IMG/VR virus record: IMGVR_UViG_2703718672_000013
Direction: 5' to 3' (one strand)
Origin: a virus
Lineage: Duplodnaviria; Heunggongvirae; Uroviricota; Caudoviricetes
DNA length: 12,078 bases
Below the pieces are notes generated by a model that was not told the DNA's origin, did not search any database, and saw only the letters and a program-made list of their open reading frames with translations. Both the position numbers and the translations under genes were made by a program. Position 1 is the first letter of the stretch. Each line of letters starts with the position of its first letter. This document shows positions 3,055-11,994 of this stretch, piece after piece.

Positions 3055-3113
3055 AAAAAAGGGCGGCAGAGCAGTTACGGAGTAAAACTGATACCGCCAA
3101 ATGTCACCAGAAT
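3055..3113 (-). ncRNA. dicF: DicF-like small RNA (ftsZ-targeting sRNA family of Qin/Rac-type prophages)
   Basis: Minus-strand sequence ATTCTGGTGACATTTGGCGGTATCAGTTTTACTCCGTAACTGCTCTGCCGCCCTTTTTT is near-identical to my recollection of E. coli DicF, ending in a U-run; located immediately upstream of the DicB-like gene in the same orientation. Confidence 0.7.
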
Positions 3114-5290: not shown

Positions 5291-5692
5291 TCACGCCCGG
5301 CGGCTTTTTTGTGCCGCCAGCCACCTAGCAATGGTTTCTTCCATTGATTTTTTCTTGTCTTTGATTTCTTGAAGCATTTTTTCTTGGTCTTCCTCAGGAA
5401 ACGCACTAAAAGCTTGGAGCAGTTCGCGTTGGCGAGGACCAATTTTCATCGTGTCAGGGGTGAAAATTTGCTCACACTCTTCAGGAGGCAATAAAAACCA
5501 ATGCAATGGATGCCCTGAAACCTCAACCAGTTTATCCAAACTTGAGGCTTTAGGTGTAGCCTTACCGCTGACCCATTGTTGAACAGTTTGTTGTGTCACA
5601 CCAATTCTACGGGCAAGCTCAGCCTGGCTCCATCCAGTTTCCTGAAGAAGCTTGCTGATTCTGTACATAGATACTTCTAGGGCGCTCATCAT
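5291..5692 (-). CDS. cI/RacR-like prophage repressor, HTH (XRE family); probably also the transcriptional regulator (PaaR-like) of the downstream toxin-antitoxin pair
   Basis: HTH segment LLQETGWSQAELARRIGVTQQTVQQWVSG; divergent from the Cro-like gene across a palindromic operator; ends 27 nt before the antitoxin. Start uncertain (5692, 5689 or 5668). Confidence 0.8.
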   Translation of the reverse strand: MMSALEVSMYRISKLLQETGWSQAELARRIGVTQQTVQQWVSGKATPKASSLDKLVEVSGHPLHWFLLPPEECEQIFTPDTMKIGPRQRELLQAFSAFPEEDQEKMLQEIKDKKKSMEETIARWLAAQKSRRA

Positions 5693-5729
5693 TATTCAAT
5701 TTTACAGGTAAATACTGTTAAAAGCATCA

Positions 5730-5766
5730 CAATAAAAAACTGTTGATTGCATACAGTTTTTTATTG
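5730..5766. promoter_or_regulatory. OR-like operator: perfect 14-bp inverted repeat (CAATAAAAAACTGT / ACAGTTTTTTATTG) with 9-bp spacer, in the divergent repressor/cro intergenic region; candidate -10 TATAGT at 5778-5783 for the rightward promoter
   Basis: Palindrome read directly in the sequence; same half-site core as the 4694-4733 site; a further ACTGTT copy at 5714-5719. Confidence 0.6.
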
Positions 5767-5800
5767 TAGGCTTTGCTTATAGTTTTTAGAGGAGGGCAAA

Positions 5801-6073
5801 ATGCTAGATAGCACTCGCGAAAAAATTAGGCAGAAATACACTCAGGCTGAAATAGGTCGTTATATGGGGGTCGCTCAACAGACTGTTTGGCAATGGTTTA
5901 GCTTTGGCGTTCCCCCAAAGCAGGTAATTCCGTTATGCCAACTAATGAAGTGGGAAGTTACCCCGCATGAAATCCGCCCAGATATTTATCCTAACCCAAC
6001 CGACGGTTTACCTGTTGGATGTAAGGTTAACACATCAAATGCGCCGGAGTTGATTCATGAAAATCAAGCATGA
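5801..6073 (+). CDS. Cro-like / YdaS-family HTH regulator (90 aa)
   Basis: Strong GAGGAGG Shine-Dalgarno (5789-5795); HTH TQAEIGRYMGVAQQTVWQW; divergent from the repressor; position equivalent to cro/ydaS. Confidence 0.75.
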   Translation: MLDSTREKIRQKYTQAEIGRYMGVAQQTVWQWFSFGVPPKQVIPLCQLMKWEVTPHEIRPDIYPNPTDGLPVGCKVNTSNAPELIHENQA

Positions 6074-6482
6074 ACACATCCGCATGGCGATGAATGCCTG
6101 GGCGCATCCGGACGGCGAAAAAGTACCGGCTGCGAAAATTACCAAAGCGTATTTCGAGCTGGGAATGACGTTCCCGGAACTGTATGACGACAGCCATCCG
6201 GAAGCCATGGCTCGCAATACTCAGAAAATTTTCCGCTGGGTGGAGAAAGACACTCCTGATGCGGTTAAAAAAATTCAGGCGTTGTTACCAGCGATCGAAA
6301 AAGCGATGCCGCCTCCGCTGGTGGCCCGAATGCGCAGCCACAGTTCCGCTTATTTTCGGGAGTTGGTAGAGACGAAGGAACGGCTGGTGAAAGATATTGA
6401 TGATTTCGTTGCATCAGCGATCGTTCTGTTCGATCAGATGAATCGTGGTGGCCCGGCAGGAAACACTCTGGCTGTGCATTAA
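6057..6482 (+). CDS. YdaT-family protein (141 aa; cII-position protein of Rac-like prophages)
   Basis: N-terminus MKIKHEHI is the remembered YdaT start; 17-nt overlap with the Cro-like gene; comparable size. Confidence 0.72.
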   Translation: MKIKHEHIRMAMNAWAHPDGEKVPAAKITKAYFELGMTFPELYDDSHPEAMARNTQKIFRWVEKDTPDAVKKIQALLPAIEKAMPPPLVARMRSHSSAYFRELVETKERLVKDIDDFVASAIVLFDQMNRGGPAGNTLAVH

Positions 6483-6495
6483 TTGGGTAATAAAT

Positions 6496-7005
6496 ATGAG
6501 TAATGACAAAAAATTGACACTGAGCGTTTACGAAAACAGTCCGCACATCTGGCGTGGCGGTTTATCTGATGTGGAGCTGGCAGAGTGGTTGATACATAAA
6601 GCTAATGCGCTGCTCTGGCGTTTGTCAGCCAGAGAACAGCGCAAGGAAACCAGAATAAAGCTGGCTGATGCAGAAGCGTGTGCCGGGCTTATTGAGGATT
6701 ATACAAATCTTGGTATTTCTTCAGCAGAGAGTGATCCCATTCAGCCTCTGAGCAGGGAGTCAATCCAGCACGCTGGTTGTATGGCACATCTTGTAACTGC
6801 TCGTCAACATGAGGTGGGTATTGGATCACTTCCGGCGGGATATTCGCTGATTCCAGAGCTGGTTGAAGCAAGAAAATCAGTTCAGAAAAAGAGAGATGAC
6901 GCACTTCAATTATTGAGAGAGCACTATGGCGCGATACCAGAATGCGAACAGCGTCGATACCCTGAAGGTTATGAATGGATGCAGTCTCTTTTTGAAGTTC
7001 GCTAA
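6496..7005 (+). CDS. Hypothetical protein (169 aa from ATG 6496; alternative GTG start at 6445)
   Basis: Same orientation as flanking early genes; protein-like composition; no family recognised; weak Shine-Dalgarno. Confidence 0.45.
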   Translation: MSNDKKLTLSVYENSPHIWRGGLSDVELAEWLIHKANALLWRLSAREQRKETRIKLADAEACAGLIEDYTNLGISSAESDPIQPLSRESIQHAGCMAHLVTARQHEVGIGSLPAGYSLIPELVEARKSVQKKRDDALQLLREHYGAIPECEQRRYPEGYEWMQSLFEVR

Positions 7006-7222
7006 TCAATATGTCGAGACGAAGGTATGTTTCGGCGCGCAGCCAGGCTCTGTAATCCGGGAGCATTTCGGGGCTGTTACACCAGCGGTTTGTTGCTGCA
7101 ACATTTAATACATGAGCCTGATAAAGGCTTTTCAAAAAATACATGTCGAACCTCCTCTGGTTCTGTCGATTGGGAACCACAGATTATATCCGGAGGAAGG
7201 TTCGGCACCAGATGAGGTAGCC

Positions 7223-8314
7223 ATGCGTGATTACGCAAAAGTTTCTCCGCGATTCTGGCTGGGAGAAACGGGGAGAGAACTTAGAAAGGCGGGTGCAGAA
7301 GCGCAAGTTGTTGCTTTTTACCTGATGACATCCCCTCACGCAAATATGCTGGGTTTGTATTACCTGCCAGTTTTATACCTTGCTCATGAAACCGGGCTTG
7401 GTCTGGAAGGGGCTTCAAAGGGGCTTAAAAGGGCTGTTGAAGCTGGTTTTTGTAGCTATGACCATGATGCAGAGATGGTCTGGGTCCATGAAATGGCAGC
7501 CTGGCAGGTTGGGGAAACGTTGAAGCCTGGCGATAACCGTTGTGCAGGTGTCAGGAATGAGTATGCATCATTACCTGAAAACGCTTTTCTGTCAGTGTTT
7601 TACGACAGATATAAAACGGATTTCCATCTGGATGTGAGGCGGAATAATAGCCGAAATTCGGTAAGGGGCTTCGAAGGGGCTTTTAAGGGGCTTCGAAGCC
7701 AAGAACAGGAACAGGAGCAGGAGAAAGAACAGGAACAGGACAAAAACACTATGGTTCATGGCAAAAAAAACACCACGAACCAGGCAGGGGATGTTCAGAC
7801 CGTCAATCCTGGTCAGCCAGCAGGCACGACACCGGAAGCCGATTCGGGCGCTGTGCAGCAGGTGATGACCGCAGGGTCGGAGCAATCACACCAACTGCAG
7901 CAGCCTGAAGCCGATTCCGCCATTCAGCGGGAAGCCGATCGGGTAGTCCCGGAAAGCACCGGGCAGTCTGTGGGACGAGTGGATTATCCGGATGTGTTCG
8001 AACAGGTCTGGCGGGAATACCCGTTGCGTGCTGGGGCAAACCCGAAGAAATCCGCTTTCAGTGCCTGGAAGGCCAGATTGCGCGAGGGGGTGCCACCAGA
8101 GACCATGCTGGATGGTGTGAGGCGTTACGCGAGATACCTGGCGGCGACCGGGAAAGCGGGAACGGAATTTGTTCAGCGAGCGACGACGTTTTTTGGGCCG
8201 GACCGGAATTTTGAAAACCCCTGGTTGCTCCCGGTAAGCGGCACGAACAACCAGCGTTGTGTGAATCATATTTCTGAACCGGATACCGAAATTCCGCCGG
8301 GATTCAGGGGGTGA
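7223..8314 (+). CDS. Phage replication initiation protein (O-like/primosomal; conserved phage C-terminal domain) with an internal EQ-repeat linker
   Basis: ATG at 7223 with GAGG at 7213-7216 (track ORF starts 37 codons upstream); C-terminal region DYPDVFEQVWREYPLRAGANPKKSAFSAWKARLREG recalled from phage replication proteins; immediately followed by a DnaC-like gene. Confidence 0.72.
   Translation: MRDYAKVSPRFWLGETGRELRKAGAEAQVVAFYLMTSPHANMLGLYYLPVLYLAHETGLGLEGASKGLKRAVEAGFCSYDHDAEMVWVHEMAAWQVGETLKPGDNRCAGVRNEYASLPENAFLSVFYDRYKTDFHLDVRRNNSRNSVRGFEGAFKGLRSQEQEQEQEKEQEQDKNTMVHGKKNTTNQAGDVQTVNPGQPAGTTPEADSGAVQQVMTAGSEQSHQLQQPEADSAIQREADRVVPESTGQSVGRVDYPDVFEQVWREYPLRAGANPKKSAFSAWKARLREGVPPETMLDGVRRYARYLAATGKAGTEFVQRATTFFGPDRNFENPWLLPVSGTNNQRCVNHISEPDTEIPPGFRG
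7407..7436. repeat. Iteron-like cluster 1: AAGGGGCTT at 7407 and 7418 plus degenerate AAGGGCTG at 7429, all 11-bp phased
   Basis: Read directly in the sequence; lies within the replication initiator ORF. Confidence 0.55.
7663..7700. repeat. Iteron-like cluster 2 (candidate ori core): AAGGGGCTT x3 at 7663, 7674 and 7685, 11-bp phased; includes the perfect palindrome GGCTTCGAAGCC
   Basis: Read directly in the sequence; followed by a hexamer tract and an A-rich stretch, inside the initiator ORF as in the lambda O/ori arrangement. Confidence 0.55.
7703..7744. repeat. Tandem hexanucleotide tract (GAACAG/GAGCAG/GAGAAA)x7 encoding the EQEQEQEKEQEQD linker
   Basis: Read directly in the sequence; possible length-variable microsatellite. 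Confidence 0.6.
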
Positions 8315-8320
8315 TGTGGC

Positions 8321-9067
8321 ATGAAAAACATTGCGGCAGCCGGGGTTCTTGAACGTATTCGCAGACTTGCACCACAGGCGTCGGTTCCACCGTACCGGAC
8401 GGTGGAGGAGTGGCGGGAATGGCAACTTGCTGAAGGACGAAAACGCAGCGAGGAGATTAACCGCCAGAATCACCAGTTGCGGGTGGAAAAAATCCTGAAT
8501 CGTTCGGGCATCCAGCCTCTGCACAGCAAATGCTCGTTTGCGAATTATCAGGTGCAGAACGACGGGCAAAAATACGCGCTGAGCCAGGCCAAATCCATAG
8601 CTGACGAACTGATGACCGGGTGCACGAATTTTGTGTTCAGCGGTAAAACCGGCACCGGGAAAAATCACCTTGCAGCGGCGATGGGTAACCGGCTGATGGC
8701 GAAGGGGCGCAGCGTGATTATCGTCACCGTGTCTGATGTCATGAGCGTGTTGCATGACAGCTACGACAACGGCAAATCCGGGGAAAAATTTTTACAGGAG
8801 CTTTGCAGTGTTGATTTGCTGGTCCTGGATGAAATAGGCGTTCAGCGGGAGACGAAAAACGAGCAGGTGGTATTACACCAGATAATTGATCGCCGGACAG
8901 CATCACTGTGCAGTGTCGGGATGTTAACAAACCTGAATCATGCCGCAATGAGTACACTTCTTGGTGAGAGGATTATGGACCGCATGACCATGAACGGTGG
9001 TCGATGGGTGACGTTTAACTGGGATAGCTGGCGTCCAAATGTCAGCAATATGAGGGTTGTGAAGTAA
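8321..9067 (+). CDS. DnaC-like helicase loader (AAA+ ATPase; YdaV/lambda-P functional analogue)
   Basis: Walker A GKTGTGKNHLA, Walker B LLVLDEIG; ATG 7 nt after the upstream stop; 248 aa. Confidence 0.85.
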   Translation: MKNIAAAGVLERIRRLAPQASVPPYRTVEEWREWQLAEGRKRSEEINRQNHQLRVEKILNRSGIQPLHSKCSFANYQVQNDGQKYALSQAKSIADELMTGCTNFVFSGKTGTGKNHLAAAMGNRLMAKGRSVIIVTVSDVMSVLHDSYDNGKSGEKFLQELCSVDLLVLDEIGVQRETKNEQVVLHQIIDRRTASLCSVGMLTNLNHAAMSTLLGERIMDRMTMNGGRWVTFNWDSWRPNVSNMRVVK

Positions 9068-9088: not shown

Positions 9089-9583
9089 ATGGAAACCGTA
9101 TCTGACGCACTGAAAGCACTGAAAAAAGCCTCTTCACATGTGGTGGCAGCTCGCCTTGGAATCAGTCGTGAAGAGGCTGTCAACGAGCTGTGGGAACTCA
9201 AAATAAATGGCGTCGTTGATAAAACTGGTCACACCTGGTTTCTGGCTGGCGAAGGTGAATCCCGGGTAACCGAAGAGCGGCCAGTAAAATCTGAAGCACA
9301 GGATATGCTGACCGGGGAGGTCGAACAAAAAGTTACCGCAGACATGATGATTGAGTTTATCGGTCAGGATGGGGCTAAAACGTGTGAGGAACTGGCGGGT
9401 AAGTTCGGTGTCAGTACTCGCAAGGTTGCTTCCACGCTGGCGGTGGTAACCGCAACGGGGCGGCTGGCACGCGTTAATCAGAACGGTAAATTTCGTTACT
9501 GCATGCCGGGCGATAATTTACCAGCAGAGCCGAAAGCCGCGCTGGTAACGGAAAGTGATGGTAAGGCCTTTCCTCAGCCAGCA
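9089..9583 (+). CDS. Hypothetical prophage protein with two winged-helix-like repeats, 3' end lost in the N-gap
   Basis: ATG at 9089 with GGAGG upstream; internal duplication (AARLGISREEAVNELWELKINGVVDKTGHTWFL / ELAGKFGVSTRKVASTLAVVTATGRLARVNQNGKFRYCM); ORF runs into the N run. Confidence 0.5.
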
Positions 9584-9653
9584 NNNNNNNNNNNNNNNNN
9601 NNNNNNNNNNNNNNNNNNNNNNNNNNNNNNNNNNNNNNNNNNNNNNNNNNNNN
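9584..9653. other. Assembly gap (70 N)
   Basis: Run of n characters. Confidence 0.99.
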
Positions 9654-9695
9654 TCCCGCCGTGTTGTATCGGAAAAGTGATTGCCGGAGGCGCTT

Positions 9696-10109
9696 ATGGC
9701 AAAAGTATTTACACAGGAAGAGCGGGAAAAAATTAAAGGGCAGGTTGTTGAGCTAGTACGCCGGAGTGGGCGCGAGACGTTACGGCAACTGGAAGCCAAG
9801 ACAGGTGCGACAAGATATCTGATGAGCGTTCTTGCCAGAGAGCTGGTTGCCAGTGGCGATGTATACAACTCTGGTTACGGGTTATTCCCATCTGAACAGG
9901 CTCGTAAGGACTGGCAAAACGCCCGCAAAAAACTATCGAGGGCAAAACTGAAGAAACCGGTTGTGGTTGATCCTGACCTTATCTGGTCATTACCAGACGG
10001 AGAAATACGCCGCTATGACAGGCAATTGAACATAATTTGTAGTGAGTGCCGTAACAGTGAAGTGATGCAGCGAGTTTTGATATTTTACACAGGAGTAATG
10101 ATGGAATAG
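9696..10109 (+). CDS. Hypothetical protein (137 aa)
   Basis: ATG at 9696 with GGAGG 5 nt upstream; protein-like composition; possibly a fragment of a longer ORF continuing from before the gap. Confidence 0.45.
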   Translation: MAKVFTQEEREKIKGQVVELVRRSGRETLRQLEAKTGATRYLMSVLARELVASGDVYNSGYGLFPSEQARKDWQNARKKLSRAKLKKPVVVDPDLIWSLPDGEIRRYDRQLNIICSECRNSEVMQRVLIFYTGVMME

Positions 10110-11234: not shown

Positions 11235-11781
11235 GCGTTCTCCCCATGAGCATTAAAGGATGCTTAAGATATGCTATGTCACTGATAAAAAATTTGTTGT
11301 GTGTGTTTAGTTATTTTATCTACCTCCATTATGATTTAAGACTGATATATGTTATCAGCAAAGGTACATCGTTATTATTTTACCTGTCAATACATTTGAT
11401 ATTGATTATCGTTTACATCGCTTGCTTAGGAAATTGAAGGCAGGTAACTATCATGTCAATGAACTAACCCACAGTCTAACGTACTTCTTTCCCCAATCAC
11501 CAACAACCAAATTCCTGTTATCACCACTGGGATTTTGGCGCAACTTCATGGTGCAGAGGTAAATAGCATCAAGCAAAATCTCTTTTTCCGTTGTTGTCCT
11601 TATGGGACGTCTGTCTTTCTGACCGATTTCATATTGGCGAGGTAATGGGAAGTTAAGTAGAATAGCTGCGGGTGCTTGAGGCTATCTGCCTCGGGCATGA
11701 ACACCAACGGCAGATAGAGAAAAGCCCCAGTTAACATTACGCGTCCTGCAAGACGCCTAACATTAATCTGAGGCTCAATCT

Positions 11782-11994
11782 ATGAACGGCAAATCTAGGT
11801 TAGCCTCTTACGTGCCGAAAGGCAAGGAGAAGCAGGCTATGAAGCAGCAAAAGGCGATGTTAATCGCCCTGATCGTCATCTGTTTAACCGTCATAGTGAC
11901 GGCACTGGTAACGAGGAAAGACCTCTGCGAGGTACGAGTCCGAACCGGCCAGACGGAGGTCGCTGTCTTCACAGCTTACGAACCTGAGGAGTAA
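11782..11994 (+). CDS. mok-like overlapping reading frame of a hok/sok-type type I toxin locus
   Basis: 70-aa ORF that contains the hok-like frame, the arrangement of mok/hok; GAGG upstream of ATG 11782. Confidence 0.5.
   Translation: MNGKSRLASYVPKGKEKQAMKQQKAMLIALIVICLTVIVTALVTRKDLCEVRVRTGQTEVAVFTAYEPEE
11839..11994 (+). CDS. hok: Hok/Gef-family type I toxin (51 aa membrane peptide)
   Basis: MKQQKAMLIALIVICLTVIVTALVTRKDLCEVRVRTGQTEVAVFTAYEPEE matches the Hok family signature (LTRKSLCEIR...EVAAF.AYE) as I recall it; a 9-bp hairpin lies in the leader (11682-11717). Confidence 0.78.
   Translation: MKQQKAMLIALIVICLTVIVTALVTRKDLCEVRVRTGQTEVAVFTAYEPEE

Follow-up and report, generated by a model that had tools for sequence, protein, structure and literature searches.

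Does the replication initiator gene ECs_1073 of prophage Sp4 carry, inside its own coding sequence, the origin at which its product acts? The question is raised by two clusters of a 9-bp repeat, AAGGGGCTT, found within this gene in the window analysed here, a stretch of 12,078 nucleotides (IMG/VR record IMGVR_UViG_2703718672_000013) that is part of Sp4 of Escherichia coli O157:H7 Sakai (NC_002695.2) and identical to it in sequence. Origins located inside initiator genes are textbook knowledge for phage lambda, and to our knowledge only very few of the numerous unrelated initiator families of temperate phages have had such an origin mapped. An initial annotation of this DNA had proposed a candidate origin inside the gene, in parallel with lambda, and the comparative evidence reported here supports that candidate. 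This study considers that the clusters are probably iterons bound by the initiator of their own gene, and that together with a purine-rich tract and a palindrome downstream they probably form the replication origin of the phage.

The exact 9-mer was observed five times, at 7407-7415, 7418-7426, 7663-7671, 7674-7682 and 7685-7693, always on the plus strand, and no further exact copy was found in the window on either strand. Only 0.08 copies were expected, and a count of at least five was reached in 0 of 200 dinucleotide shuffles; chance is thereby excluded. When one mismatch was allowed, six copies were counted against 3.0 expected, which is not significant, and the signal therefore depends on exactness and clustering. 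Start-to-start spacing inside each cluster is 11 bp, and Tandem Repeats Finder reported period-11 arrays at 7407-7433 and 7663-7698, as well as a period-6 GAACAG array at 7703-7740. The claim of two exact copies in one cluster and three in the other, 11 bp apart, is thus confirmed by the exact count and by this program. Each unit consists of 9 bp with palindromic arms (AAG/CTT) around an asymmetric GGG or CCC centre. The degenerate third copy claimed for the first cluster fared less evenly: at 7429-7437, AAGGGCTGT is weak as a match, since only 6 of 9 bases agree with AAGGGGCTT in an ungapped comparison, but it stands as a phased unit of the family consensus. Counted from the first copy, this consensus places AAG units in phase at +22 and +33; the unit at +33 corresponds to a conserved GAAGC (7439-7443), and the same GAAGC closes the second cluster at 7695-7699. 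From this phasing it follows that each cluster comprises four 11-bp-phased units, of which two or three are strong. Cluster 1 spans codons 62-75, with codons 62-68 (EGASKGL...) at the start of the predicted third helix of the DNA-binding domain, while cluster 2 occupies codons 147-161 in a disordered segment, directly before the linker tract and a mosaic junction at 7743.

For the comparative analysis, annotated phages, IMG/VR and contigs representing one genome per species supplied 228 homologous loci, which reduced to 181 non-redundant homologues. Their N-domains are 39-100% identical, and the hosts include Enterobacterales, Acinetobacter, Burkholderiales, Legionellales and Gemmata. Members of the family occur in Stx-converting phages such as POCJ13 and 75/02 Stx, and also in phages that infect Klebsiella, Acinetobacter, Ralstonia and many environmental bacteria. 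Down to about 47% identity, nearly all homologues carry the 9-mer at gene positions ~185 and ~196 and then at ~429-463, with 11-bp spacing, and cluster 2 is present at the equivalent position in nearly all of the 181, either in forward orientation or in the flipped form AAGCCCCTT. The codons under cluster 1 were compared among 66 representatives no more than 85% identical to one another and proved to be nearly fixed (GAA 100%, GGG 95%, GCT 95%, AAG 98%, GGG 77% and CTT 92%). Codon entropy is 0-0.86 bits under the cluster against 1.6-2.4 bits at other conserved four- to sixfold sites of the same domain, and the spacer codon within the cluster varies freely. Since this control is drawn from the very sequences tested, the objection that kinship alone explains the fixation is answered.

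Cluster 2 behaves differently at the protein level, and its three units are read in three frames (RGF, EGA and KGL) because the period is 11 bp. Most non-enterobacterial lineages have these units flipped to AAGCCCCTT, sometimes unit by unit, which changes EGASKGL to EAPSKPL and leaves the 11-bp phase and the position unchanged; of 102 units, 97 have GGG or CCC at their centre. The units of cluster 2 can flip and those of cluster 1 cannot, because cluster 2 encodes a disordered linker and prolines would break the helix encoded by cluster 1. These observations show that the repeats are constrained as DNA and not as protein. The repeats are also confined to the locus: across 809 kb of related loci, the only additional phased pairs detected were, in the Acinetobacter clade, immediately 5' of the start codon, and otherwise in an apparent second copy of the gene. 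Phages Fraca and B1251, whose complete genomes were scanned, have all their exact 9-mers within the initiator gene or next to it. Cluster 1 is missing from the most distant homologues, whose helix 3 also has other residues; cluster 2 is retained in them and is therefore the universal core. Members at 39-47% identity display the variant units AAGGGCAT, AAGGGGTCC and AAGCCCTT, still in 11-bp phase. It looks as if the DNA site has left its mark on the protein as EGASKGL, and not as if this peptide determined the specificity.

Several peculiarities of single lineages were also recorded. Expanded arrays occur in distant members (L161 1970-2055 and L168 1960-2045), with eight units in an Acidobacteriota metagenome-assembled genome and seven AAGCCCTT units in one of Dehalococcoidia, and a few lineages (L147, L166 and L139) show 12-bp instead of 11-bp spacing. 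Locus L149 harbors a second two-cluster set 1208-1495 bp 5' of the matched gene, with five forward units and, about 265 bp further on, four mostly reverse ones; this looks like a second initiator gene copy on the same contig. In the Acinetobacter clade, units in 11-bp phase occur a third time, as a pair or triplet 7-37 bp 5' of the initiator start codon (L004 2460-2479, L233 5611-5630 in phage B1251, and L100, L104, L117, L119, L120, L213 and L214), which suggests that the initiator autoregulates there and is compatible with the origin model. The initiator gene of B1251 itself (L233, JX403940.1) extends over 5649-6542, of which the deposited annotation calls only 5916-6542, so that its N-domain, including iteron cluster 1, is found in unannotated sequence starting at ~5649.

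The identification of ECs_1073 as a replication initiator, which the initial annotation had assumed, is borne out by protein families and by gene order. The protein matches PHROG 1701 over residues 1-363 (E 9e-149), and its C-terminal half matches PHROG 3729, 'replication initiation protein' (E 1e-125), the names of both families being annotations; no Pfam family was matched. The gene follows cro/cII-like genes and is followed immediately by that of a DnaC-type helicase loader, so called also in an earlier study (PMC2669165), which is presumed to be the partner of the initiator. Three parts were recognized in the protein, namely an N-terminal domain (residues 5-143), a disordered linker (about residues 144-175) and a C-terminal module. 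The model of the N-domain is a confident winged helix, with putative helix-turn-helix helices at residues 50-57 and 60-73 and a wing at residues 77-88; judging from the order of the secondary-structure elements, the helix at residues 60-73 would be the third of the motif. Structurally it comes closest to CRP/FNR-family and MarR-family transcription factors, and RepE (2z9o) and a plasmid initiator (4pta) are also among its structural matches. The predicted local distance difference test score falls below 50 for residues 144-160, indicating that cluster 2 encodes part of the disordered linker. A sequence search of the PDB returned nothing for the N-domain and only weak matches of the C-terminal tail to DnaT chains (6aep, 2ru8 and 9zbt, E 0.02-0.07). 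The last 24 residues (…ISEPDTEIPPGFRG) resemble the extreme C-terminus of the primosomal protein DnaT, and this tail may mimic the contact of DnaT with the DnaB-DnaC machinery.

Downstream of cluster 2, the hexamer tract and the A-rich segment described in the initial annotation are both present, and the latter proved to form the loop between the arms of an inverted repeat. The tract was expected to vary in length and does so: versions of 41, 47 and 65 nt exist among relatives at no less than 92% identity, and across the family it ranges from 4 to 22 codons, with (AAR-GAR)n in its place in some members. Averaged over the family, duplex stability is lowest at the tract itself and again 80-140 bp 5' of it; the A+T-rich patch found on that side, within 60-140 bp of the tract, is as unstable as the tract. 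The inverted repeat folds as DNA with -5.9 kcal/mol and a z-score of -2.7 here, compared with z-scores of -4.1 to -5.9 in relatives. The inner stem GGCGA-AAAAA-TCGCC is intact in the relatives, whose intact-palindrome allele is GGCGAAAAAATCGCC, and is altered here to GGCAA...CACC. The O157 lineage, with 19 of the 25 close loci, carries three substitutions that weaken the inner stem, and two loci are intermediate. At the level of the family, a palindrome of unrelated sequence is overrepresented 3' of the tract relative to control windows, the mean minimum free energy being -6.4 kcal/mol against -4.6 kcal/mol (p = 1.6e-6). No DnaA box was detected near the element, the sole match to TTWTNCACA in the window being at 10083; a scan for promoters and terminators gave no excess of sites over shuffles, and Rfam reported no RNA family in the repeat region.

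The modular structure of the gene provides a further line of evidence. On the 3' side of the junction at 7743, the sequence shares 91-92% identity with the 'replication protein O' genes of further E. coli phages; the N-terminal halves of those genes show no relationship to that of ECs_1073. One such case is phage Tritos (OV696610.1, L228 2150-2470), which joins an unrelated N-domain to a C-terminal module matching that of ECs_1073. Its repeat units are GTCACG at ~10-bp spacing, arranged in two clusters 250 bp apart and followed by a (ACAGATAAAGAT)x2 tract and then by the same hairpin. Tritos-type initiators are found in E. coli phages and prophages; they share with ECs_1073 clusters ~250 bp apart, units spaced by about one helical turn, a repetitive linker tract and the same hairpin, and differ from it in the unit and its spacing, in an N-domain of unrelated sequence and in a cluster 1 that comes earlier in the coding sequence of the domain. 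Tritos looks like a second, candidate type of in-gene origin with the same two-cluster design. Together with the variant units of members at 39-47% identity, this shows that the repeats travel with the N-domain and change in type when it does. Depending on the member, the cassette is joined to a DnaC/IstB loader or to a Toprim-DnaB primase-helicase, and such different helicase-recruiting partners give the modular pattern expected of an origin-recognition module fused to one that recruits the helicase. An origin of this kind would help to explain the exchange of modules at initiator linkers.

From these features we infer a course of events leading to the firing of the origin. Copies of the N-terminal winged-helix domain would bind the units, which are spaced by about one helical turn, so that they would sit on approximately the same face of the DNA, and the occupied clusters, ~250 bp apart, may then be bridged. 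The resulting strain could open a nearby segment of low stability, either the purine tract or the A+T patch at 7584-7616, and the C-terminal module would recruit the phage DnaC-type loader together with host DnaB.

A number of observations weigh against this reading. The tract contains ~50% G+C, no clearly A+T-rich element lies directly 3' of the iterons, and the least stable segment is 5' of cluster 2. The palindrome is enriched and not universal: it falls in the top decile of its own locus at only 28 of 65 loci. In the very O157 lineage studied here the inner stem is weakened, which could reflect decay of the origin in a non-inducible prophage. The third cluster at the Acinetobacter start codon fits an operator as well as an origin. 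With regard to the residues that would read the site, L166, one of the most distant homologues, has a quite different helix 3 and yet canonical 9-mers, and on this account EGASKGL was rejected as the specificity determinant. The literature search found no binding or replication experiment, and no paper, on any member of the family. It also returned primers in unrelated papers as the only matches to the literal 9-mer, and none for the 9-mer combined with 'iteron', for the doubled motif or for the locus tag. Furthermore, Sp4 DNA in Sakai was reported to be amplified only through regional (passive) replication from the neighbouring prophage Sp5; the Sp4 replication genes were judged apparently functional in the same study (PMC2669165). 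Matches in a plasmid collection were considered as a sign of autonomous replication and discarded, because they are contigs of chromosomal or prophage origin placed there in error: one linear record of 32 kb contains an integrase and a cytosine permease, and others are megabase-sized 'plasmids'. They give no evidence either way.

A broader proposal goes further than an origin in ECs_1073, and we offer it as tentative and rather doubtful. It holds that a bipartite, plasmid-like in-gene origin cassette, bound by monomers in head-to-tail order and with almost frozen specificity, is very widespread from enterobacteria to Acinetobacter, Burkholderiales, Legionellales and Gemmata; that in the main clade the DNA site dictates the helix-3 peptide EGASKGL and not the other way round, whereas the cluster-2 units in the linker codons flip strand freely; that a loop of ~250 bp is formed; and that phages sharing the 9-mer compete for or cross-activate one another's origins. 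Should it be true, there would be consequences for interference between prophages, for instance in O157 with its many lambdoid prophages.

Among the other explanations, the repeats may be operators at which the initiator, or another winged-helix protein, represses or blocks its own operon, with the origin elsewhere, and this we regard as unlikely. The resemblance of the N-domain to transcription factors speaks for it, as do the extra Acinetobacter units, which lie where binding would affect expression. Both universal clusters, however, are deep in the coding sequence and not at a promoter, the order of iterons, tract and palindrome reproduces that of the lambda origin, and the two complete phage genomes scanned (Fraca and B1251) contain no other cluster of the motif. 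Autoregulation by initiators of the iteron type is established for iteron plasmids. Because iteron initiators commonly autoregulate as well, an operator function would add to the origin role and not take its place (PMC5043065). That the repeats are a mere by-product of a required peptide, EGASKGL, without any role as DNA, is hardly credible. Helix 3 does conserve the motif, and some homologues have the peptide again at the linker, but synonymous codons are fixed under the motif only, the units occupy three frames, flipped units encode another peptide, cluster 2 encodes a disordered segment, and distant homologues keep the DNA units without the helix-3 peptide. The initial annotation had named repeats explained only at the protein level as the outcome that would overturn its proposal; the codon, frame and orientation data exclude this, and such an explanation was rejected.

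There is also a very small probability that the clusters serve another function in cis, for instance as a centromere-like site for partition, a signal for packaging or a hotspot of recombination that created the mosaic junction. Two clusters of 11-bp-phased repeats do resemble parC of plasmid R1, and the junction is only 40 bp downstream of cluster 2. Nevertheless, these are integrating temperate phages and the window has no partition genes next to the repeats, which accompany the initiator N-domain in every genomic context sampled; junctions at initiator linkers are expected from modular initiators, and the cos site of Sp4 is elsewhere (PMC2669165). Another explanation concerns only the hairpin and A-run at 7741-7782, which a consensus scan flags at 7782-7752 as an intrinsic terminator of antisense, minus-strand transcription with the tail TAGTGTTTTT. 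It is equally improbable: there is one such site where 1.8 are expected in shuffles, the T-run is interrupted and offset, the palindromes of other family members lack a T-run on either strand, and none follows that of lambda.

The coordinates of all the features are collected in Table 1.

Table 1. Features in and around the candidate in-gene origin of ECs_1073 (positions are those of the window).
Feature	Position	Strand	Details
Replication initiator gene ECs_1073	7223-8314	+	363 aa; identical to the Sakai gene annotated 'phage replication protein'
Region coding for the N-terminal winged-helix domain	7223-7651	+	DNA-binding domain (predicted), aa 5-143
Putative iteron cluster 1	7407-7448	+	exact AAGGGGCTT at 7407 and 7418; degenerate phased units at 7429 (AAGGGCTGT) and 7440 (AAGCTGGTT)
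Least stable (A+T-rich) duplex of the gene	7584-7616		between the clusters; candidate unwinding region; nearest-neighbour stability profile
Putative iteron cluster 2	7663-7704	+	exact AAGGGGCTT at 7663, 7674 and 7685; half unit AAGCCAAGA at 7696-7704
Purine-rich (CAR-GAR)n tract	7700-7747	+	encodes the QEQEQEQEKEQEQDKN linker; second candidate unwinding region or spacer
Mosaic junction	7743		Megablast matches confined to query positions 632-1201; Tritos sequence either side
Inverted repeat	7752-7782		TGGTTC (7752-7757) pairs with GAACCA (7777-7782); the A-rich segment is the loop
Initiator C-terminal tail, DnaT-like	8240-8311	+	NF002770 positions 156-179 of 179; weak matches
DnaC-type (DnaC/IstB) helicase loader gene	8321-9067	+	PF01695 E 4e-19; NF009043 E 2e-153; DnaC NF005931 E 3e-89

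With respect to the surroundings, a repressor gene (5291-5692, minus strand) and YdaS- and YdaT-like genes lie upstream of ECs_1073. Of 5426 complete E. coli genomes, 469 (~9%) contain the N-terminal segment of this gene. Just upstream of the initiator gene, an open reading frame on the minus strand (6689-7180) matches an 'ECs1072 family phage-associated protein' (NF033230, E 3e-30) and has no PHROG family match. Rfam detected two full-length RNAs elsewhere in the window. The DicF antisense RNA (3061-3112, minus strand, 76.9 bits, E 6e-16) adjoins a gene annotated in Sakai as a cell-division inhibitor, and the sok antitoxin RNA (11670-11844, plus strand, 105.6 bits, E 1e-23) overlaps the start of a 70-residue open reading frame (11782-11994) called 'phage maintenance protein' in the Sakai annotation, so that this is a module of the hok/sok type. 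A perfect tandem duplication of GCACTGAAA was noticed at 9107-9124, inside a DUF1627 gene (9089-9736).

An element of this kind was to be expected, and for specialists it is a matter of interest rather than surprise. It shows how precise an origin candidate can be derived from sequence, down to units, phase, clusters, tract and palindrome, and it offers a natural example of selection at the DNA level overriding codon choice, and even amino-acid choice, within a gene. Such candidates may be of use in the annotation of phage origins and in the design of phage-derived replicons.

Compared with known systems, the lambda parallel is closer than the initial annotation proposed, since lambda also possesses a purine-rich linker tract and a palindrome. 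The lambda record has four annotated 18-bp iterons in the middle of gene O, followed on the 3' side by an A-/purine-rich tract coding for a linker (ACACAAAAGACACTATTACAAAAGAAAAAAGAAAAG) and by a 28-bp palindrome, GTCAGAGAATTC-TGGC-GAATCCTCTGAC, with a 4-nt centre. The literature likewise places the lambda origin in the middle of gene O, describes its iterons as 19-bp inverted repeats bound by O dimers, and reports that two of them with the A+T tract suffice for unwinding (PMC7466680, PMC5043065). In ori-lambda of lambda and Stx phages, as in ECs_1073, the repeats lie inside the initiator gene at the boundary of the N- and C-terminal domains, the type of repeat follows the type of N-domain, and the gene of the helicase-recruiting partner is immediately downstream; the succession of cluster 2, tract and inverted repeat in Table 1 is the order of lambda. 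The differences are nonetheless considerable. Lambda has inverted repeats of 18-19 bp at intervals of 20-24 bp, in one cluster, with a strongly A+T-rich tract and lambda P as the partner, whereas ECs_1073 has asymmetric 9-bp units in 11-bp phase, in two clusters ~250 bp apart, with a tract of balanced composition and a DnaC-type loader. The ECs_1073 protein gave a BLASTP E of 5.1 against lambda O, which is no homology, and it lacks Phage_rep_O (PF04492), for which lambda O scored E 6e-36 in the same run; the parallel is therefore one of design and not of family.

Phage L, a P22-like phage, comes near in another respect. Six imprecise repeats of 11 bp (TGTCCAACGGA) in its gene 18 have been put forward as its origin, and the phage thus shares with ECs_1073 short repeats of 11-bp period inside a lambdoid initiator gene and an origin role assigned from sequence alone, although the repeat sequence is another, the array is single and the helicase partner is of the DnaB type (PMC8022706). 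By this precedent, short phased in-gene iterons are already known as a kind. Iteron plasmid origins (F RepE, P1 RepA, RK2 TrfA and pPS10, among others) combine helix-phased direct repeats with a winged-helix initiator, as is predicted in our case, and the plasmid iterons are bound by monomers (PMC5043065). Plasmid iterons, however, measure ~17-22 bp and lie outside the rep gene in company with DnaA boxes, whereas the units of ECs_1073 measure 9 bp and lie in the gene with no DnaA box nearby. In form, the units of ECs_1073 accordingly come closer to those of plasmids, and in location to those of lambda; features of note are their division into two clusters ~250 bp apart, the 9-bp units that can be flipped individually, and the placement of one cluster in the codons of the DNA-binding domain.

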